Program-made: the position numbers and the translations under genes
Assembly: GCF_030028105.1 (NCBI RefSeq)
Contig: NC_092377.1
Location: 72,632,569 to 72,696,568 of the forward strand
Direction of reading: 5' to 3'
Source of the DNA: Mobula birostris
Lineage: Eukaryota
Length of the DNA stretch: 64,000 nt
Shown here: piece after piece, positions 4,934 to 47,200 of the stretch
How positions within the stretch are numbered: the stretch's first letter is position 1
How the letters are laid out: every line of letters begins with the position of its first letter
The notes under the pieces: generated by a model
Databases searched by the model: none
Told to the model about the DNA's origin: nothing
The model's input: the letters and a program-made list of their open reading frames with translations, nothing else

Positions 4934-5549
4934 AGCACATACAAAATGCTGGAGGAACTCAGCAGGCCAGACATTATCCATGGAAAAAAAGTACAGTTGA
5001 CATTTTGGGCTGAAACCCTTCAGCAGAGCTGGAGAAATAAAGGCTGAGCTCTAGATTTAAAAGGTGGGGGAGGGGAGGGAGAAACCCTAGGTCATAGGTG
5101 AAAGCTGGAGTGGGAGGGATGAAGTAAAGAGCTGGGAAGTTGATGAAAGAGACAGAAGGCCGTGGAAGAAAGAACACCAGAGGCCAGACAAGGAGATGAG
5201 GTGAGAGAGGGAAAAGGGGTTGGGAAATGGTGAAGGGGGCCAGGGGTGCTGTGGGCATTACCAGAAGTTGGAGAAATCGATATTCATGCCATCAGGTTGG
5301 AGGCTACCCAAAAAGAATATAAGGTGTTGTTCCTCCAACCTAAGTGTGGCCTCATCATGACAGTGGAGGAGGCCATGGATGGACATATCGGAATGGGAAT
5401 GAAAGTGGAATTAAAATGGGGAGATCCTGCTTGTTCTGGTGGTCAGAGCGTAAATGCTCAGCAAAGCGGTTCCCAGTCTACGTCAGGTCTCACCGACACA
5501 CAAGAAGCCACACCGGGTGCACCAAACACAGTAAATGACCCCAACAGAT
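4934..5549 (-). mobile_element. Penelope-like element 3' fragment (GIY-YIG C-terminus plus terminal repeat with a dead hammerhead)
   Basis: Reverse complement of about 24750-25447; at 4994-5030 the ribozyme core reads CUGCUGA...AAAA-U-GUC (mutated). Confidence 0.85.
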
Positions 5550-19490: not shown

Positions 19491-20694
19491 AAAATGACAT
19501 TAGATGACTGGCAATTTCCTGATTTCAGTTGGCGCTTTGGTTACTGTTGGTTGGTGTGGGGGGGGGGGTGTTAGGGAGAGAATACATATCGGGGGAAGCT
19601 GCAGTGACCGGGTCTCCGGTCCCGAGTCTGGTTCTGCGTCCCAGAGATTCCATGGACAGAGGAGCAGAAAGAAGATTCAGTGGACGTGAAAGAGACACCT
19701 GGAACGTATGTTTTCTCCCAGGTGCCAGGATCAGGAATGTCTTGGATCAGGTCGACAGCATTCTAAAGGGAGAGGGTGAACAGCCAGAAGTTGTGGTACA
19801 TATTGTTATCAACCACATGGTTATGAAAAAGGGGAAGGTCCTGAAGAGAGAATATAGTGAGTTCAGCAGAAAGCTGAAAAGCAGGACCTCCAGGCCAGTA
19901 ATCTCTGGATTGTTCCGTATGCAACTTCCCAGTGAAGATAAAAATAGGATGATTTGGTAGATAAATGCATGGCTGAAAAATTGGTGCAGGGAGCAGGGTT
20001 TCAGATTTCTGGATCATTGGGATCTCTTCTGGGGAAGGTATAACCTGTATAGAAAGGATGGCGTACACCTAAACCTGAGGGAGACCAATATCCTTGCAGA
20101 CAGGTTTTCTAGAGCTGAGGGGGAGGGTTCAGACTAATTTAGCAAGGGGGTGGGAACCAGAGTGACAGGGCAGAGAATGGGACAGTTGGTATACAACTAG
20201 ATGTAGTGAGACTGTGAGGAAGGACAGGTAGATGATACGGCAAAATTGCAGTCAGTGGGATGAGTAAAGTGAAAGAGGGAGCCAAAATCAAAAAGGGTGA
20301 TGAATACAGGACTGAAGGTATTATATTTGAATGTACGCAATATACGGAATAAAGTAGATGATCTTGTATCATATTTAGAGATTGGTTGGTATCATGCTGT
20401 GGGCATCTCAGAATTGTAGCTGAAAGAAGATCATAGTTGGGAGCTTAATATTCAAGGATACCCATTGTATCGAAATGACAGGCAGGTAGGCAGAGGGGGT
20501 GGCATGGCTCTGTCAGTAGAAAGTGAATTCAAATCCTTAGAAAAAGAGGTGACATAGGATTGGAAGATGTAGAGTCAAGGAACTGCAAGGGTAAAAAGAC
20601 ACTAGTGGAAGTTATATGCAGGCCTCCAAACAGGAGCAAAGATGCTGGCTACAAATTACAATGGGAGATAGAAAAGGCATGTGAAAACGGCAAT

Positions 20695-20858
20695 ACACAC
20701 AAAATGCTGGTGGAACGCAGGACTGACGAAGGGTCTCAGCCTGAAACGTCGACTGTGCTTCTTCCTATGGATGCTGCCTGGTCTGCTGTGTTCCACCAGC
20801 ATTTTGTGTGGTGTTGCTTGAATTTCCAGCATCTGCAGATTTCCTCATGTTTGCATTT
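20695..20858 (+). mobile_element. 164-bp non-coding Penelope-derived mini-element with inverted repeat and hammerhead core, inserted in CR1
   Basis: Inverted repeat 20696-20720 / 20786-20810 (24 of 25 complementary); TSD tgaaaacggcaat (20682-20694) / tgaaaaggtcaat (20859-20871); body matches 25353-25447. Confidence 0.85.
20723..20754 (+). ncRNA. Minimal hammerhead ribozyme core (5' strand of stem I missing)
   Basis: CUGACGA-AGG(gucucag)CCU-GAAA-C-GUC-gacu. Confidence 0.65.
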
Positions 20859-23064
20859 TGAAAAGGTCAATGTTGTGATAATCGTGGGGATTTCAGTATG
20901 CGCGTAGATTGGGAAAATCAGGTTGGTGCTGGATCCCAAGAAAGGGAATTAGTACAATGCCCATGAGGTGGCTTTCTAGAGCAGCTTGTGGTTTAGCCCA
21001 ATTGCCAAATGACAATACTGGATTGGGTGTTATATTGTGACCCAAATTTGACTAGGGAGCTAAAGATAAAGGAACCCTTAGGAGACAGTAATCATATTAT
21101 GATAGAATTCACCCCATAGTCTGAGAAGGAGAAGCGAAGATCTGATGTATTAGATTCACAATGGAGTAAAGGGGATGCATGAGGGGGGAGCTGGCCAAAG
21201 TTGGTCAAGCACAGCAATGGTTGGTGTTTCTGGGGGAAATTCGAAAGGTGCAGATAAGCTACATCTCAAATATAAAAAAAAAGTATTCCAAAGGGAGGAT
21301 AAGGTAACTGTGGCTGATAAGGGAAGTCAAAGAAAGCATAAAAAGCAAAAGAGAGGATATATAAATTAGCAAAAAGTGTGGGAAGGTAGAGAATTGAGAA
21401 GCTTTTAAAAATCAACTAAAGACAACTAAAAAGCCATAAACAGAGAAAAGATGAAATATGAAGGTAAGCTAGCCAGTCACCTAAAAGATACAAAAAGTTA
21501 TTTCAGATATATAAAGAGTAAAAGAGAAACGAAAGTAGACGTTGAACATAGTAATGGGGTAGAGAAATGGTGGACAAACTTAAATAAGTATTTCGTGTCC
21601 AACTCCACTGTGGAAAACACTAGCAGTATGCCTGAAATGTGAGTGTGTCAGGGGATAGAAATGAATGTCATTGCGACTACTAAGGAGAAGGTGCTTGGGA
21701 AGCTGAAAAGTGTGACAAGTTAGACAAGTCACCTGGACCAGATGGACTACACCCCTGGGTTCTGGAAGAGGTAGCTGAAGAGACTATGGAGGCATTAATG
21801 ATGATCTCTCAAGCATAACTAGTCCCTGGAATAGTTCTGGAGGAAATTGTAAATATCACTCCAATCTTTAAGAAGGGAGAGAGGCAGAAGAAAGGAAATT
21901 ATAGGCCAGTTAGCTTGACTTCAGTTGTTGGGAAGATGTTGGAGTCCATTATTAAGGATGGGCATTCGGGGTACATGATAAAATAGGCCAAAATCAGCAT
22001 GTTTTCCTTAAGGGGAAATCTTGCCTGACAAATCTGCTGTAATTTTTTGCTTAATGGTTGTTATTGGGAACGCTTCTTTTTACATTATATGTCAATGATT
22101 TGGATAAAGGAATTGATGGCTTTGTGACTAATTTTGTGGACGATATAAAGATAGGAAGAGGGACAAGTAGTGTTGAGGAAGTAGGAAGTCTGCAGGAGGA
22201 CGTGGACAGATTGGGGGAATGGGCAAAGAAGTGGTACATGGAATACAATGTAGGGAAGTGAATGGCCATGCATTTTGGCAGAAGGAATGAAGGTGTGGAC
22301 TATTTTCTAAATGGGGAGGAAATGCAAAAATCAGAGGTACAAAGGGACTTGGGAGAACTGATGCGGGATTACCTAAAGGTTAATGTGCAGGTTGAATCGA
22401 TGGTAAAAGAACCAAATGCAATGTTAGCATTCTGTTTGAGAAGACGAGAATACAAAAGCTAGGATACAATGCTGAGGCTTTATAAGGCATTGGTCAGACC
22501 CTACCTGGAGAATTGTGAGCAATTTTGGGTGCATTATCTAAGAAGGGATGTGCTGGCATTGGAGAAGATCCATTGAAGGTTCCCAATAATGATTCCAGGA
22601 ATTAAAGTGTTAACATACGAGGTATGCTTGGTAGCTCTGGGACTGTACTCACTGGAGCTTAGAAGAATGAGGGGGGAATCTCAATGAAACCTATTGGATA
22701 TTGAAAGGCCTAAATAGAGTGGACGTGGAGCAGATGTTTCTGACAGTGGAAAACCTAGGACCGCAAGGCACAGCCTCAGAATTTGGAGTTGTCCATTTAG
22801 AACAGAGATGAAGAAAAATTTCTTTAACAAGAGGGTGGTGAATCTGTGGAATTCATTGCCAAAGAAAGCTGCGCAGACCAGTGTATTGGGTATATTTCAA
22901 TTGAAAGTTGATGGGTTCTTGATTTATCAGGGCATTAAAGGACACAGGGAGATGGCAGGAGAATAGGATTGAGAGAGCTAATAAATCAACCATGATGCAA
23001 TGGGGGGCACAGATTCCATAGGCCAAATGGCCTAATTCTTCTCCTATGTCTCATTATTGTCTAT

Positions 23065-24055: not shown

Positions 24056-25051
24056 AACTTTCACCCTGCCCTCAAGTTTACCTGGTCCATTTCCAACACC
24101 TCCCTCCCCTTTCTAGATCTTTCTGTCTCTGTCTCTGGAGACAGCTTATCCACTGATGTCTACTATAAGCCTACTGACTCTCACAGCTATCTGGACTATT
24201 CCTCTTCTCACCCTGTCTCTCGCAAAAACGCCATCCCCTTCTCGCAATTCCTCCGTCTCCGCCGCATCTGCTCTCAGGATGAGGCCTTTCATTCTAGGAC
24301 GAGGGAGATGTCTTCCTTTTTTAAAGAAAGGGGCTTCCCTTCCTCCACTGTCAACTCTGCTGTTAAACGCATCTCCCCCATTTCACGTACATCTGCTCTC
24401 ACTCCATCCTCCCGCCACCCCACTAGGAATAGGGTTCCCCTGGTCCTCACCTACCACCCCACCAGCCTCCGGGTCCAACATATTATTCTCCGTAACTTCC
24501 GCCACCTCCAATGGGATCCCACCACTAAGCACATCTTTCCCTCCCCCGCTCTCTCTGCATTCCGCAGGGATCGCTCCCTACGCAACTCCCTTGTCCATTC
24601 GTCCCCCCCATCCCTCCCCACTGATCTCCCTCCTGGCACTTATCCGTGTAAGCGGAACAAGTGCTACACATGCCCTTACACTTCCTCCCTTATCACCATT
24701 CAGGGCCCCAAACAGTCCTTCCAGGTGAGGCAACACTTCACCTGTGAGTCGGCTGGGGTGATATACTGCGTCCGGTGCTCCCGATGTGGCCTTTTATATA
24801 TTGGCGAGACCCGACGCAGACTGGGAGACTGCTTTGCTGAACATCTACGCTCTGTCCGCCAGAGAAAGCAGGATCTCCCAGTGGCCACACATTTTAATTC
24901 CACATCCCATTCCCATTCTGACATGTCTATCCACGGCCTCCTCTACTGTAAAGATGGTGCCACACTCAGGTTGGAGGAACAACACCTTATATTCCATCTG
25001 GGTAGCCTCCAACCTGATGGCATGAACATCGACTTCTCTAACTTCCGTTAA
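24056..25051 (+). pseudogene. Penelope RT C-terminus plus GIY-YIG endonuclease, uninterrupted 331-codon frame, 5'-truncated
   Basis: NFHPALKFT, LPFLDL, VYYKPT, YLDYSSSHP, YPCKRNKCYTC, VIYCVRCSRCGLLYIGETRRRLGDCFAEH, PDGMN. Confidence 0.92.
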
Positions 25052-25348
25052 TGCCCCACCTCCCCCTCGTACCCCATCTGTTACTTATTTTTATACACAC
25101 ATTCTTTCTCTCACTCTCCTTTTTCTCCCTCTGTCCCTCTGAATATACCTCTTGCCCATCCTCTGGGTCCCCCCCCCCCCCGCCGTCTTTCTTCCCAGAC
25201 CTCCTGTCCCACGATCCTCTCTTATCCCTTTTGCCTATCACCTGTCCAGCTCTTGGCTCCATCCCTCCCCCTCCTGTCTTCTCCTATCATTTTGGATCTC
25301 CCCCTCCCCCTCCAACTTTCAAATCCCTTACTCACTCTTCCTTCAGTT

Positions 25349-25384
25349 AGTCCTGACGAAGGGACTCGGCCTGAAACGTCGACT
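25349..25384 (+). ncRNA. Minimal type I hammerhead ribozyme, intact core
   Basis: Stem I AGUC/GACU, core CUGACGA, stem II AGG/CCU with a 7-nt loop, GAAA, palindromic ACGU in place of stem III, GUC cleavage triplet (predicted cut at 25380/25381). Confidence 0.8.
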
Positions 25385-25529
25385 GCATCTCTTCCTAGAG
25401 ATGCTGCCTGGTCTGCTGCGTTCACCAGCAACTTTTATGTGTGTTGCTTAAAGTGGTTTAAACAGGTTGTCTTTTCAAACAATCTGTCCACCCCAACATT
25501 TCACTAAAAAGGTGACAGCTTTATGGAGA

Positions 25530-26432
25530 CACAAGACACAGAATCTGGAGCAACAAGCCATCGGTTGGAGGAACTCAGCAGGTCGAACAGCTCTGATCTA
25601 GTCAGGTCAGTTTAGATTATTGTCAGACACAGAAGGGAACAAAGAAATTCTTTGCTCATGTGAAGCTCTCAGAGTAAATCGTACAGATGGTAATAATAAA
25701 TTAACAATAAATACAACAACAGGTGCAAAAAACAAAGGAATGCACAGAGTAGTAGTGAGCTGAGGTAGTGCCAAACGAAATACTAAAGTGACAATGGCAG
25801 AAAAGATAGAATTAAGGACTTGAGAACAAAACAGCACCACTAGGAAGGCGATGTGCAAGAAGTGATTAGTTCAGAAGTCTGATAGCAATAGGGAAGAAAC
25901 TGTTCTCGAGTCTGGTCGTTTGGGCTTCCTGTATCTTCTCCTAGACGGTATGAGAGAAAATGAAATGGCTAGGGTGACAGGCATCTTTCAATGATACTGT
26001 CAGTCTTCCTGATGCAACACTCTGTGAAGATAGACTGAATAGGAGGATGTTCTAGGTAAATTTATTATCAAAGTACATTTATGCTACTATATACTACCTT
26101 GAGATTAACTGACTTGCATGTATTTACAGGAAAAATAATACAATAGAAAAACTGTGAATAATCTGACAAAAACTAACAGCTAATGCAAAAGAAAACAAGC
26201 TGTGCAAATAAAATGATACTGATTTGTAAAGAGACCTTGAAAATGAGTCTATAGTTTGTAGAATCAGCTCCGAGTCGTGGAAAAGGAATTGTCGATGCTA
26301 TGGGTTGAAGCAGGGCTCATCAGTGTTTTGTGTCGAAACTCAGCATCAGCACTGGTCAAGTTGACGATTCCTTTCCTCCCTACAGATGCTGCTTGACCCG
26401 TCGTGTTCCTCCACCAGATGGTTTGTTGCTAC
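25530..26432. repeat. Decayed palindromic Penelope-type mini-element split by Rex1-type LINE fragments (about 25605-26310, minus strand)
   Basis: gcaacaagccatcggttggaggaactcagcaggtcgaacagc (left) is inverted relative to gctgcttgacccgtcgtgttcctccaccagatggtttgttgct (right); the middle holds reversed Rex1-type tails. Confidence 0.55.
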
Positions 26433-27499
26433 AGCTTTGTGTACAATTAGTAATCAGTGGCCCCAATCATCTACTGAAACTTCCAGATTTGGCTAAAAGC
26501 TGACATGCCCGTGGATTCTCCGGGAACATTAATATTTTAAAAGGATGTGCACTGAATAAGAATTTCATAAAATTTACAATTTACTAAATACACCAACATT
26601 TGTCACTGGCTAAAGCCATGTGCATCACTGCTGATCTTCTAAACTTTCAGCAAAACAATGTTTAATCAACGGGCATTATTATGCTACACACATGTCAGAT
26701 TCATGCAAAAAAAACGGCCTTGCAACAAAATCAGTGTAATATAATTGAGGCATTAGTAAAATCTGTAAATGCCTCATCCATCAATATGTGGAAGTGGCTG
26801 GCTAAACTCAGACTGCTAACAGGTGTGCTGCAAGTTTGCAACTCACTGATTTGAACTGGAATTCTTGTAATTTGACCTCTTTCCCTACAATCCAGACACT
26901 GTAATTTTCCATCATTCTAGCCTTTTGCCTGAGGGATTACTAACTATGCCACTCAACATAATTTGCTTTAATGTAGTCTTGCAGCTCCTCTAACAGATTC
27001 TGTTTGCAATGGCCTTGGGTTTTTAGTCTAAATTAGTCTGAAAATGCAAAAATCTACATTCCTAGAAATTAGATCTATTTTACTCCTGTTTTCTATGCAC
27101 AAAACGGATATAAAAGCCAGTTTGCACATCTTCGCATGGTCACCACCACACGTCAGGAAATGTTTCTGTGCACGTTTCACCATGGTGCGGCTCATGTTGA
27201 TCCACAGGCATTCACACGCATGATGACATCGTCAACCTGTACGGCAGTCACCTCCGTTTTACCAGCAGAAACTGGGGCAATAGCGTCAACTCCCAGTAAA
27301 ACAAAGAGAAAATCCCATAATTTACTCAGGAATTCCCAGATGGGATGTGGATCTGTTGTTGACTCCATTAACCAGTATCACTTTTCAATGTCTGTTCTGC
27401 TTCTCTTACATCATAGAGACAGGATCTTCATCCCATCAAATTGGCACTAACCATCAATTATCATTTACGTTCACACTATTTTACTCTTCCTACGCTCTC

Positions 27500-37928: not shown

Positions 37929-38305
37929 AGTCTTGATGAAGGGTCTCCGTGAGAAGCGTTGACTGTTTATTCCTCTCCGTAGATGCTACCTGACCTGCTG
38001 AGATCTGCTGTGTATTTAAAATTTCAGTAATGTTTGACTAATATTGTAAACATAGTGTTTTATTAAGCATTTTTTGTTCATTTACACAATTCATTATGGG
38101 TTATATATAAGATGCATGTAAATGGCATATGCCACTTGGCCACCATGTCACATGTGTGCTCCTCTCTAAGAAAATGAAACTAAGTAGACACGTTATCCCC
38201 CGGCTGCCGTGTTTTTCTTTTGCTTTATTTTATGCTTCAGTGTTACAAAGCATCACAAGTTCCTCCAACATTTTCTGTGTTTTACAGCAGATTTCCAGCA
38301 TCTGG
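37929..38305 (+). repeat. Decayed Penelope terminal repeat (hammerhead remnant) interrupted by a solo LTR
   Basis: agtc-UUGAUGA-agggtctc...gaag-cgtt-gact, gatgctacctgacctgctg; resumes at agttcctccaacatttt...gatttccagcatctg. Confidence 0.75.
38006..38257. mobile_element. Solo LTR (252 bp)
   Basis: TG...CA termini; 5-bp TSD agatc (38001-38005) / agttc (38258-38262); removing it restores the host repeat. Confidence 0.75.
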
Positions 38306-39671: not shown

Positions 39672-42368
39672 GTGCTAATCGGCCACCACTCCCTAGCATA
39701 CTCCTGGATAACGTTCAGTCCCTGGACAACAAGCTGTGCGAGCTGAGAGCAAGAATCTCCTGTCAGTGGGAAACAAAGGAATGTAACGTTTTGTGCTTTG
39801 TGGAGATCTGGCTGATGGAGGAGATACTGAATCATGCCATTGAGCCCTCTGGGTTCGCCCTGTTCCGAGAGGACAGGTCAAAAAACCTCTCTGGGAAGAG
39901 TAAAAGAAGTAGGGTATGCTTCCTGGTCAATAATGCTTGGTGCGACCCCTGGAATGTGCATGCTCTCAAATCCTTTCGTTCCCCGGATCTGGAGTACCTT
40001 GTGCTGCTGTGTAGACCTTTCTGGCTGCTGAGGGAGTTCACGGCTGTTATCATCACAGCAGTGTATATTCTGCTGCAGGCTGATACTGACCTGGTTCTCA
40101 AGGAACTCTACAAGGTCATCAGCACCCTGGAGACTGTTTTCCCAAAGGCTGCCTTTATTGTGGCCGGAGACTTTAATGGAGCGTTGCCATCTAAAGTCTC
40201 TCCGAAGTTTTGTCAACGCACCCAGGTGAGCACACGGGGAGATAGCATACTTAGTCACTGCTACTCTCCCTTCTGCAATGCTTACAAAGCGTTCCTCCGC
40301 CCGCCATTTGGAATGTCAGATCACTCTTCCATCTTGCTTTGGCCAATGTACAGTCAGAGGTGGAAACAGGAGGCGGCCATATTTAAAACCGTCCACTATT
40401 GTTCTGACCAATCAGCCTCCATGCTACAGGACTGCTTTGATGAAGTCAATTGGAATGCCTTTCATGATGAGGATGTCTCCGAGTTCACGGAAGGGGTCAC
40501 AAACTTCATTGCAGAAGTGCATCGAGGATGTTGTCCCCCAAAAATCGGTCAGGATCTATCCAAACCAGAAACTCCAGATCACCAGTTCCATACATGCAGC
40601 TCTTAGCGCGTGAGACAGAGCCTTCACTGCCGGTAACCACCAGGAACTCAAGAAGTGCAGCTACGATCTATGATCTATTATCAAGGCAGCGAAGCAATAC
40701 GGGGACAAGATCCAGACACAACTCTCCACCAACAGCACACACAGCTTATGGCAAGGTCTGCACACCATCGCAGACTTCAAACCTAAACACAGTGGTGCTG
40801 CCAACATTGCTGCCTCTCTCCCTGAGAAGCCAAATCTTTTTTACGCTTGGTCTGAGTCCTTGAGGGGAGTTGCTGAAGCGGTCTGCACCTTGGTCATCTC
40901 CAAGGTTGAAGTACGCAGGCGTTTCCAACGAGTGGATGGTCGTAAGGCTGCGGGACCAGACGGCATCCCGGGGTGGGTACTCAAAATGTGCGTGGCACAA
41001 CTGGCAGGTGTGTTTACAGACATTTTAATCTCTCCCTCTCCCAGTGTAGAGTGCCCTCCTGCTTCAAATTATTCACCATGTTCCTATACCTAAAAAGATC
41101 TGTCTGAACAACAGGCATCCTGTCGCACTCACCTCAATAATAAGGAAATGATTTGAGAGGCTGGTCAAGGACTACATCTGCAACATGCTACCACCCACAC
41201 TGGACCCCTTACAATTTGCCTACCGACACAACTGATTGACAGATGATCAATAGCCACAGCCCTACACACCATCCTTACACATCTGGAGAAGGATGCTTAT
41301 GTGAGAATGCTGATCTTGGACTACAGTTCAGCATTCAACACCATAATTCCCTCCAGACTTGACTAGAAGCATTAGAGACCTCAGCCCTCACCTTGCCTTG
41401 TGCAGCTGGATCCTGGATTTCTTGCAGGTGGTAAGAGTGGGTTCCCTCACCTCTGCCCCTCTGACCCTCAACACAGGTGCCCCTTAGGGCTATGTCCAAA
41501 GCCCCCTCCTCAACTCCCTGTATACCCATGACTGTGTTACCACCCACAGCTCCAATCTGCTAATTAAATTTGCTGATGATACTACATTGATTGGCCTCAT
41601 CTCAAGTAATAATGAGACAGCCTACAGAGAAGTGGTCATCACCCTGACGCAGTGGTGTCAAGAAAACAACCTCTCCCTTAATGTCACAAAAATAAATGAG
41701 CTGGTTGTGGACTACAGCAGGAATGGAGACAGGCTAACTCCTATTGACATCAATGGACCTGGGGTTGAGAGGGTGAACAGCTTTAAGTTCCTCGGCATAC
41801 ACATCACCGAGGATCTCACATGGTCTGTACACACCAGCTATGTGGTGAGAAAAACACAACAGCACCTCTTTTACCTCAGACGGTTGAAGTAGTTTGGTAC
41901 GAGTCCCCAGATCCTAAGAACTTTCTACAGGGGCACAACTGAGAGCATCCTGACTGGCTGCATCACTGCCTGGTATGGGAACTGTACCTCCCTCAATCGC
42001 AGGACTCTGCAGAGAGTGGTGCGGACAGCCCAGCATATCTGTAGATGTGAACTTACCACAACTCAGGATATTTACAGAGACAGGTGCATAAAAAAGGCCC
42101 GAAGGATCACTGGGGACCTGAGTCACCCAACCACAAATTGTTCCAGCTGCTACCATCTGGGAAATGGTACTATAGCATTAAAGCCAGGACCAATAGGCTC
42201 CAGGACAGCTTCTTCCACCAGGCCATCAGACTGATTAATTAACGCTGATACAATTTTATTTCTATGCTATATTGAATGCCCTGTTGTACATACTTTTTTT
42301 TACAAATTACTATAAATTGCACTTTGCACATTTAGACGGAGATGTAACAAAGATTTTTACTCCTCATG
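39672..42368 (+). mobile_element. Rex1/Babar LINE copy 1 (APE plus RT), degenerate
   Basis: [60 protein letters not shown]. Confidence 0.93.
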
Positions 42369-45097
42369 GTCCTAAGATGGGGCTGTGTGCGGCGGCCGTG
42401 TACGAACTCTGTTCCAAATCTACAGTATACTACCAATTTCTACGATTTTCTGTTCAAGTAGGTGATAATCACATCAGAAACGATAGACTGACACTTCTGA
42501 ACATTGGAAAGACAGTATTTACCCACTACGTGCCGCCTTTACACTGGGAACCCCTGCTTGCGTGATCCATGGGAGACTCATGGAAATGAGGGAGAAAGAC
42601 CGGCATACTGGTGGGACTAAGACAGCATGCAAATCGGCCGCTTGCTGTGACCCCCAGAATGTGCATGCCCTCAAATCCTTTTGTTCCCCAGACCTGGAAT
42701 AGCTGGTGCTGCTGTGAAGACCCTACTGGCTTCCTAAGGAGTTCACAGCTGTTATCATCACAGCGGTGTACATTCCACCCAGACTAATACTGACCTGGCT
42801 CTCAAGGAACAGTACAAGACCATCAACATGCTACAGACTTCAGACCCATAGCCTGCCTTCATCATCGCTGGTGACTTTAATCGAGCATCGCTGACGAAAG
42901 TCTCTCCGACGTTTTGTCAGCACATCCAGGTAAGCACTTGTGGAGATAAGATACTTAACCACTGCTACACTCCCTCCCTTCTGCAACACTTATAAAGCTC
43001 TCCTTCGCCTAGCTATTGGAAAATCAGATCACTTTGATCCTGCTTTTGTCGATGTACTGGCAGAAGCTGAAACAAGAGGCAGCCATAGTTAAAACCATCC
43101 ACTGTTGGTCCAGGCAGTGGGTCTCCATGCTGCAGGACTGCTTCGATGATGTCAATTGGAACGTCTTCCATGATGAGAATGTCTCCAAGTTCATTGATGC
43201 AATCACGTGCTTCATCTGGAAGTGCATCGACGATGTTGTCCCCCAGAAGTTGGTCAGAGTCTTCCCGAACCAGAAACGCTGGATCGGTAGTTCTGTGCAA
43301 GCATCACTTACTGTGCGACACAGAGTTTACACTGCCAGTAATCAACAAGAACTCAAGAAAAGCAGCCACAATCTGCACAAAGCTGTCAAGGCTGTGAAGC
43401 AACAATACAGGGTCAAGATTAAGTCAAGATTCTCAACGAATAGCACACGTGACTTGTGGCAGGGCTGCACACCGTCGCAGACTTCAAAGCCAAACATTGT
43501 TGTGCCGCCAACATCGCGGCTTCTCTCCCAGATAAGCTCAATTTCTTTAATACTCGGTTCGATGTCGCTAACTCTGAGCCTCCGAGGACAGCCGCCATTA
43601 CAACCTGGTCATCTCTGAGTCTGAGGTACGCAGAAGTTTCCAACGAATAGACAGTTGCAAGGCTGTGGGTCCGGATAGCGTTCCAGAGTGAGTACTCAGG
43701 ATGTATGCACACAACTGGCAGGTGTGTTTACTGATAATTTTAATCTCTCCCTCTCCCAGTGTAGAGTGCCCTCCTGCTTCAAATTATCCACCATTGTCCC
43801 TCTACCAAAAAAGACCAAGGTAACATGCCTGAACGACTGGTGTCCTGTCCCACTCACCTCAATAATAAGCAAATTCTTTGAGAGGCTAGTCAAGGACTAT
43901 ATCTGCAGCTTGCTACTACCCACACTAGACCCGCTACAATTCACCTACTGACACAGCCGATTGACAGATGACACAGTAGCCAGTGCTCTACATACCGTCC
44001 TTACACATCTGGAGAAGGACACTTTATGTAAGAATGCTGTTCTTGGACTACAGTTCAGCATTGAACACCTTCATTTCATCCAGGTTCGACAGGAAGCTCA
44101 GAGACCTTGGCCTTGACCCTGCCTTGTGCAGCTGGATCCTGGACTTCCTGTCAGATCACCAGTGGGAAGAATGGGCTCCCTCACCTCCACACCTCTGACT
44201 CTCAACACAGGAGCCCCTCAGTCCCCTCCTTTATTCCCTGTGTACCTATGACTGTGTTGCCACCCACAGCTCTAATCTGCTAATTATATTTGCCAACTGC
44301 ACTACATTGATCGGCCTAACCTCAAGCAATAATGAGGTGGCCTACAAGGAAGAAGTCCTCTCTCTGACACAGTGGTGTCAAGAAAACAATCTCTCCCTCA
44401 ATGTCGCAAAAACAAAGGAGCTGGTTGTGGATTACAGGAGGAATGGAGACAGGCTAACCCCTATTGACATCAATGGATCTGGGGTTGAGAGGGTAAACAA
44501 CTTTAAACAGCTCCACATCACCGAGGACCTCACGTGGTCTGTACACAGCAGCTGTGTGGTGAAAAAGGCACAACAGCGCCTCTTTCACCTCAGATGGTTG
44601 AGGAAGTCCTAAGAGTCCTTAGAATTTTCTACAGGGGCACAATTGAGAGCATCCTAACTGGTTGCATCACTGTCTGATACGGGAACCGTACCTCCCTTAA
44701 TCACAGGACTCTGCAGAGAGTGGTGTTGACAGCCCAGCGCATCTGTAGATGTGACCTTCCCACTGTGCAGGACATTTACAAGGACAGGTATGTAAAAAAG
44801 GCCTGAAGGATCACTGGGGACCTGAGTCACCCCAACCACACAATCTATGCCAACTGTTACCATCCTGGAAATGGTATCACAGCATAAAAGCCAGGACCAA
44901 CAGGCTCTGGGACAGCTTTTACCACCAGGCTATAAGACTGATTAACACGCTGACTTGAGTGCATTTCTATGTTACATTGACTGTCCTATTTATTATAAAT
45001 TGCTATGATTGCACATTGCACATTTAGACAGAGATGTAACGTAAAGATTTTTACTCCTCATGTATGTGAAGGATGCAAGAAACAATGTCAATTCAAT
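42369..45097 (+). mobile_element. Rex1/Babar LINE copy 2, with 5' UTR and complete tail, internal deletion near 42645
   Basis: Starts gtcctaagatgggg; N-terminal RNDRLTLLNIG motif; colinear with copy 1; ends aatgtcaattcaat. Confidence 0.92.
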
Positions 45098-46050: not shown

Positions 46051-47200
46051 CAGGTTCCAGTGTCAGGTACATCTCGGATTGCATCCACAAAATTTTTGGA
46101 GGGAGAGGGAGATCACCCAGATGTCTTAGTACATATTGGTACCAATGACATAGGAAGGAAAAGTAAAGAGGTCTCGAGGGACAACTTAGAGAGTTAGGCA
46201 GAAAACTGAGAGCTGAAGCAGGAGCTCTAGGGTAGTAATTCCTGGATTGCTACCTGTGCCATGAGCCAGTGAGGGTAGAAACAGGATGATTTGGCAGATA
46301 AATGTGTGGCTGGGAAGCTGGTGCATGGGGCAGGGCTTCAGGTTCCTGGAGCATTGGGATCTCTTCTGGGGGAGGTATGACCTGTTCAAAAGGGATGGCT
46401 TGCACCTGAACCGGAGGAGGAAACAATATTCTCCCGGGCAGGTTTGTAAGAGCTGTTGGGAGGGTTTAAGCTAATTTGGCAGGGGTGTGTGACCCTGAGT
46501 GAAGAGACTCAGGATAGGACGGATGGTTTAAAAAAAAGTGGTTCAGGAAGGACAAGTGGATGGCAGGAAAAGATTGTAGGCTGAGTATCAGTGCATTCGG
46601 TATGCAGAATCACAAAGGGTAGCAAATACAGTACTCAAAGTGTTATATCTCAATGCATGGAGTACAAGAAATAAGGTGGATGATCTTGTTGCACTATTAC
46701 AGATTGTCAGGTATGATGTTGTGGCCATTATTGAATTGTGACTGAAGGATGGTTATAGTTGGGAGCTAAATGTCCAAAGTTACATAATGTATTGGAGATA
46801 CAGGAAGGTAGGCCTGGTGGGGGGGGGGGGGGGGTGGCCCTACTGGTAAAGGATGGCATCAGATCAGTAGAAAGATGTGATATAAGATTGGAAGATGTTG
46901 AATCCTTGTGGGTTGAGTAAAGAAACTGCAAGGGTAAAAGGACCCTGATGGCAGTTATATACATGCCTCCAAACAGTAGCTGGGATGTGGACTACAGATT
47001 ATAACAGGAAACAGAAAAGTCATGTCAAAAAAGCAAAGTTATGACCGTCATGGGAGATTTTCACATGCCAGTCAATTGGGAAATTCAGGTTGGTAATGTA
47101 TCTCAAGAGAGTGAATTTGTTGAATGCCTATGAGTTGCCTTTTTAGAGCAGTTTGTCATTGAACCTACTAGGGGTCAGCTGTACTGGATTGGATGTTACT
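46050..47200 (+). mobile_element. CR1 fragment (ORF1 esterase C-terminus plus APE)
   Basis: HIGTNDIG, FLEHWDLFWGR, DGLHL, YLNA, MGDF. Confidence 0.88.

Follow-up and report, generated by a model that had tools for sequence, protein, structure and literature searches.

A short self-complementary insert in a LINE of Mobula birostris, probably formed by two head-to-head 3' ends of a Penelope-like element

In the window analysed here (the whole stretch of 64,000 nucleotides of Mobula birostris DNA), a decayed LINE is broken by a short self-complementary segment that carries the letters of a hammerhead ribozyme. A preliminary description of this DNA offered two origins for the segment, an extremely truncated Penelope insertion or a self-propagating mini-retroelement family, and the question raised by the locus is which of the two it represents and how its palindrome was formed. 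The insert is best explained, with a probability of roughly 0.88, as two 3' ends of a Penelope-like element in head-to-head orientation, one with a tail and the other shorter and with a 63-base gap, likely produced in a single integration and likely never recopied.

The insert, its target site and its arms

The features identified at and around the insert are as follows (coordinates of the window).

19673-21113, plus strand: host, a decayed LINE with an apurinic-endonuclease region, broken by the insert; we take it to be a CR1
20682-20694, plus strand: left copy of the 13-bp target-site duplication, present as a single copy in host relatives
20690-20720, minus strand: inverted arm, a second copy of the pLTR end, tail-less and with 63 nt missing (from pairing, fold and arm classification)
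20718-20725, no strand: turn CAG-GA-CTG at the centre, where the two copies meet head to head at the 5' boundary of the hammerhead; this join recurs, with 382 exact genomic matches
20723-20754, plus strand: minimal type I hammerhead with the 5' strand of helix I replaced (from sequence and fold; as defined in PMC4209133)
20723-20858, plus strand: direct arm, the 3' end of a Penelope-like element (pLTR end and tail), 97% identical to copy L002
20818-20858, plus strand: tail, on the direct arm only (from the fold; tail as defined in PMC11167929)
20859-20871, plus strand: right copy of the target-site duplication (from the sequence and host relatives)
24140-25452, plus strand: 5'-truncated, tail-less copy of a sister subfamily with the RT end, CX4CxxC linker, GIY-YIG and native pLTR (hammerhead at 25353)

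The insert spans 20695-20858 (164 bp), contains no coding sequence and is flanked by two copies of a 13-mer that share 11 of 13 letters by sequence inspection. Among six matches to the left flank (self excluded), four host-LINE relatives (window position 46912, L059, L135 and L134) cross the site with a single 13-mer and without the insert, a fifth (L106) is also uninterrupted with a single 13-mer, slightly out of register, and the sixth (L193) stops short of the insertion site. Since the uninterrupted relatives hold one 13-mer, the pair represents a true target duplication, and the discrete non-coding insertion described previously is confirmed by both the sequence and these empty sites. Four contig sets from other samples were compared with the locus, and none of them spans it. 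The apurinic-endonuclease region of the host was detected by tblastn and by Pfam on the relative within the window. The last five bases of the left duplication (20690-20694) also fit the end of the Penelope-like element. Overlaps of a few matching bases between the duplication and the ends of the element were observed at 20690-20694 and 20855-20863 of the window and at other loci including L048, L082 and L087, a hint that primer and template may pair over a few bases at both cuts.

The inverted repeat of 25 bp noted before was found at 20696-20720 and 20786-20810, with pairing at 24 of 25 positions, and the fold of the insert is far more stable than its shuffled versions (z = -6.84; none of 200 shuffles equally stable). 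The hairpin extends past one bulge to about 20690/20817, so that the unpaired 3' extension, estimated at about 48 nt in the preliminary description, does exist with a length of about 41 nt. The sequence caggact was verified at 20718-20724. Read in reverse complement, the left arm (20690-20720) corresponds to positions +64 to +94 of the pLTR end, as counted from C of CUGA; between this arm and the centre 63 nt are absent, and the 3-nt microhomology CAG flanks the gap on both sides. The direct arm was matched to L002, which is an ordinary copy with the native upstream sequence.

The parent element and the hammerhead

Pattern search of the 4.0-Gb genome with exact matching found the native core 52,322 times and a word of the insert's subfamily 4,546 times; such searches require near-exact words, and older copies are under-counted in these numbers. 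Ordinary copies are up to 97% identical to 20723-20858, and their upstream sequence is a pyrimidine-rich untranslated region. Ten long copies were retrieved, with longest frames of 520-1014 aa and with RT motifs, the CX4CxxC linker and GIY-YIG ahead of the same end; in the long copies with this end, a frame of 790-1014 aa includes all three, and GVIYC...LLYIGET could be read. The match of the parent frame to Pfam RVT_1 (E 5e-5) was below the cut-off, no GIY-YIG domain was found by Pfam in the parent frames, where this domain was read from the motifs, and Pfam analysis of ten frames of the window gave nothing for the Penelope frames. Copies of the insert's own subfamily extend 1.2-1.46 kb into the parent frame in three of 30 cases. 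Of 30 copies retrieved with the 5' part of the ORF, 11 have a hammerhead and tail 388-390 nt upstream of the query, and in nine of these 11 the sequence farther upstream (40 nt to 1.5 kb) belongs to the end of a preceding copy. The pLTR is present at the 3' end and again ahead of the ORF, in a partial-tandem layout.

The translations include the linker CKRNKCYTC and the CCHH motif CVRCSRC...H...H. As described in PMC8557442, a CX2-5CxxC linker before GIY-YIG and an internal CCHH are motifs of the Neptune clade, and the linker is common to Neptune and Nematis. By its motifs the parent is probably Neptune-type, with marks that would fit either Neptune or Nematis, and the insert appears to be the product of an EN+ Penelope-like element with RT and C-terminal GIY-YIG in one ORF. 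The first of the two origins offered, an extremely truncated Penelope insertion, is supported by these results, the insert being the 3' end of an abundant Penelope-like element.

The window copy at 24140-25452, 85% identical to the insert over 102 nt, is, as judged from its sequence, a member of a sister subfamily and not the parent of the insert. This copy has an open frame of 303 aa and is 94-96% identical to the other 129 places that were scored; its subfamily is young and highly abundant, and open frames elsewhere reach 1014 aa. Among the long copies, two stand head to head with an identical 3' flank on both sides (L123), and three recur every 3,027 bp, flank included (L124); both arrangements may be local duplications or assembly artefacts. 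In the 5' part of the ORF of L118 and L125, the proline- and serine-rich N-terminal region contains an internal repeat with a period of about 320 bp, of which the copy number differs between copies.

Further relatives are present in the window. Of the two older palindromic relatives proposed previously, that at 25530-26432 was found as an old inverted pair (25542-25591 and 26388-26437; 78% complementary, with the arms about 800 bp apart) which matches the insert's pLTR family at 72.5%, and that at 1255-1422 did not hold, since no inverted repeat was found there and the sole family match was 16 nt at E 0.04. An older pLTR copy at 37934-38304 is divided into two parts separated by about 250 bp, apparently through a later insertion, and another at 4938-5021 (minus strand) is 80% identical to the insert and has the native upstream sequence. 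A direct repeat of 2.4 kb (39935-42368 and 42640-45062; 78% identity) was also observed.

The intact hammerhead core claimed for the insert was recognized in its letters: CUGACGA at 20723-20729, helix II at 20731-20742 and GAAACGUC at 20743-20750 are all present. The helix III loop is lacking (GAAAC-GUC), and the predicted cut is after 20750. The structure resembles the minimal type I hammerhead in CUGANGA with one unpaired base ahead of helix II, in GAAAC-GUC with palindromic 15.2-16.2 and without loop 3, and in its copies, which are mostly single and truncated with some pairs on opposite strands; it differs in the replaced 5' strand of helix I and in G10.1-C11.1, which is G-U. Upon folding as a single strand, helix II gave pair probabilities of 0.87-0.97, and helix I, which in this type has 4-5 bp beside the core, did not close the core, its core-side pairs being A-G and G-A mismatches with a pair probability of 0.0. 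In native copies helix I is formed by AGUC paired with GACU; the insert has AGGA in place of AGUC, leading to two mismatches beside the core. The loss of stem I in cis, as claimed before, is valid for these two pairs, while the stem has not wholly gone, five outer pairs being possible by chance. The hammerhead core was absent from the minus strand of the insert. An Rfam scan of the window gave nothing at E up to 1, but this silence was not counted against the hammerhead because the minimal form lacks helix III.

The active fold would cost 17.3 kcal/mol in the insert versus 4.0-10.9 in four ordinary copies, these values being for single strands, although minimal hammerheads work as dimers. In PMC4209133, minimal hammerheads showed no activity as monomers and weak activity as dimers. 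The ribozyme is predicted to be a passenger, inactive in this copy. Its substrate half is retained, predicted to be paired inside the hairpin, and an intact partner ribozyme might cut the insert RNA, which would then serve at most as a cut partner.

Recurrence of the central turn and the question of a family

Of the 382 exact matches to the turn CAGGA-CTGA, the 70 loci listed first besides the insert, from contigs C1, C3 and C4, were classified by their arms into full mirror (33), gapped (21), re-copied (5), short (4) and armless (7), the armless loci retaining just 5-7 mirror bases. The 21 gapped arms resume at 16 different positions, and 19 of them break within 3-8 nt of the centre; break point +59 was seen three times among the gapped loci, each time with different ends. 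The recurring mechanism suggested previously is supported by this turn, which is shared by hundreds of independent insertions. It had been proposed that a junction shared by many copies would indicate a family and a unique one an independent truncation; the outcome was a third one, the central turn being shared by hundreds and the gap being nearly private.

In five loci (L039, L052, L055, L056 and L058) the final 7-60 bases before the turn are copied two to three times, restarting after CAGGACT. This pattern represents repeated copying of the template end by a telomerase-related RT.

The exact junction of the insert was found in the 4-Gb genome at three loci within one mismatch and at five loci within three mismatches, the insert included. 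These few copies, together with the own target duplication, the non-coding nature and the intact catalytic letters of the insert, are what could be expected if it belonged to a retrozyme- or MITE-like non-autonomous family that propagated itself with the Penelope protein acting in trans, and trans-mobilisation of pLTRs is regarded as possible in PMC3846280. Among the other four junction loci, however, two carry the tail on the opposite arm and two have the letters of other subfamilies. The right arm of the insert differs from L002 at three positions in 88 nt, compared with 11-17.5 from the other four junction copies, and each of the five is closer to ordinary copies than to one another. On a tree of the five junction copies and 41 of 84 ordinary copies, five origins were needed for the junction, the same number as with shuffled labels; a single clade of the five was not rejected formally (p-AU 0.136), the alignment having just 91 columns. 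No gap-free second copy of the 164 bp was detected among the best 40 of 2,662 candidates.

The same reading was examined against retrozymes. According to bioRxiv 10.64898/2026.07.22.740005, non-LTR retrozymes consist of head-to-tail tandem units that each carry a complete hammerhead, and the insert shares with them the short, non-coding, hammerhead-bearing nature and the derivation from a Penelope pLTR. It differs from them as a single head-to-head monomer with a broken hammerhead (helix I) and without daughters. Many copies sharing the junction, ends and derived letters, as expected for a non-autonomous family, were not found; there are five loci, with differing ends and subfamilies. The self-propagating mini-retroelement family is contradicted by the junction count, the differences between loci and the tree, by which it appears largely refuted, and we consider it very improbable; the five junction copies are read instead as repeated independent origins, as far as their sequences tell.

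5' ends, formation of the arms and relation to known insertions

A tail was found on exactly one arm in 57 of the 59 two-armed loci, 29 on the left and 28 on the right, and on both arms in none. The 5' ends were then located in 100 matches anchored on the 3' part of the insert's subfamily, a sample in which both arms of one insertion can count: 13 fall at -5 to -1 from C of CUGA (10 of them at -4 or -3), 15 at +1 to +10, 12 over -6 to -120 and 41 farther upstream. An inverted partner is present in 30 of the 54 matches that begin downstream of -60. In a second, core-anchored sample, 11 of 30 5' ends are within 11 nt. The pattern with a non-native base before GTC gave 6,574 matches in the genome, and true truncations accounted for 24 of 30 such matches scored, two or three being doubtful. 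Two of 11 long copies also start at the front edge of the hammerhead. By these counts, the front edge of helix I is where the cDNAs tend to stop.

A second pile-up at the ribozyme cut site, hinted at by three of 30 ends, was unsupported in the 100 matches, in which four ends fall at +27 to +33, one of these at +29, versus 10 over +34 to +64. A pyrimidine tract upstream of the hammerhead edge prompted the idea of a splice acceptor, and the intron of Drosophila Penelope ends at helix I according to PMC4209133; this origin of the 5' edge was set aside, since 30 copies are cut at GTC without a common upstream exon. The likeliest cause of the front-edge ends would be an RNA start at AGUC, to judge from the position of the ends. 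The surrounding TTAGTC is presumably an initiator-like motif. An internal promoter has been described for the Drosophila element (PMC2377424). A G copied from the cap gave no clear sign by hand among the first 100 of the 6,574 matches listed (T 47, G 32, C 21).

For the element PAc (Poseidon, Anolis), both strands were cut and extended in vitro, two RT start sites bracket the tail, and hammerhead cleavage was dispensable for insertion (Frangieh et al. 2024, PMC11167929). The two start sites and the dispensable cleavage fit the presence of one tail per insertion and the scarce 5' ends at the cut site; PAc differs in being Poseidon-type, with an ORF that begins inside the hammerhead (PMC11167929). 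The joining of the two cDNAs and their stop points are not treated in the main text of that paper. The one-tail rule and the two start sites of PAc together point to a course in which both cut ends would be primed, as read from the layout, and the cDNAs would run off near AGUC to be joined through AG/CT. The endonuclease of the element would cut both strands 13 bases apart, and both cut ends would serve as primers for reverse transcription, which would begin at the tail start site on one and at the inner start site on the other. Synthesis of both cDNAs would stop close to AGUC at the hammerhead's front edge, likely the 5' end of the RNA, and a match of two bases (AG/CT) around GA would join their ends. 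In the left cDNA, the 63 nt between two CUG triplets were likely skipped.

The mirror arm could also have been produced from one cDNA by fold-back self-priming at the AG-GA-CT mini-hairpin, followed by opening of the hairpin. The turn is indeed a 2-base loop with paired flanks, the seven armless loci with their few mirror bases would fit such a start, and self-priming, on an antisense template, is the course preferred for such junctions in PMC3846280. A fold-back copy, however, cannot exceed its template strand unless a second priming or later trimming took place, and the longer arm precedes the GA loop in 29 of the 59 two-armed copies and follows it in 28. These counts oppose fold-back, which we regard as quite unlikely compared with priming from both cut ends.

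The timing of the gap is a separate point. A full palindrome of about 227 bp with the same origin might have landed and later lost 63 nt through repair of the hairpin centre at the CAG microhomology. Palindromes undergo centre-break repair, and a break near the centre would be expected from such later repair as well. The most frequent class, with 33 of 70 loci, is that of full palindromes around this centre, the gaps are located at short microhomologies, and microhomology-mediated deletions are known in Penelope copies (PMC3846280). Against later loss, five of the 70 loci have a repeated copy of sequence directly after CAGGACT; a deletion could not produce this pattern, and it shows that the template was switched at the turn during synthesis. 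Gapped copies are in addition not clearly older than full ones (median 2.9 versus 2.4 differences in 85 nt to the nearest relatives), a weak comparison of 14 gapped copies, the insert included, and 22 full copies hand-picked from the 70. Loss after landing is a possible but rather unlikely course, and the gapped loci are likely to represent forward template jumps.

The layout itself has already been published in PMC3846280 and PMC8557442, which include the inverted pLTR with its tail and duplication as well as the palindromic join and the deletions at microhomologies. Insertions of EN+ Penelope-like elements are described there with an inverted 5'-truncated pLTR, an optional tail of 30-40 bp and a target duplication (Pen2a_Av, PMC3846280; legend of Fig. 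2, PMC8557442), and an inverted 5'-truncated copy beside the pLTR, a tail at one end and a target duplication are all found in the insert. It is similar to the Pen2a_Av type in the head-to-head pLTRs, the tail at one end only, the target duplication, the palindromic join and the deletion bounded by microhomology, but is different with respect to its two copies, both too short to retain coding sequence, to its join, which falls at one recurring base position, and to its duplication of 13 bp versus 8-10 bp described for Adineta. In the openly accessible literature searched, neither a pile-up of 5' ends at the hammerhead edge nor a count of the one-tail rule was found described. For the front edge and the two-armed layout, the present addition is the counts and not the idea.

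The insert itself is a real, ordinary dead stub and matters little. We propose tentatively, at somewhat less than even odds, that such stubs, which exist in thousands, are a fossil record in which both cut strands would have been primed, always from different starts, on a transcript starting at the hammerhead's front edge and left uncut by the ribozyme, with the cDNAs joined through AG-GA-CT and with template jumps at this site. With its tail on one arm and its 5' ends at the front edge, none being piled at the cut site, the stub class bears on the role of the hammerhead, and it yields countable predictions on how Penelope-like elements finish their integration.
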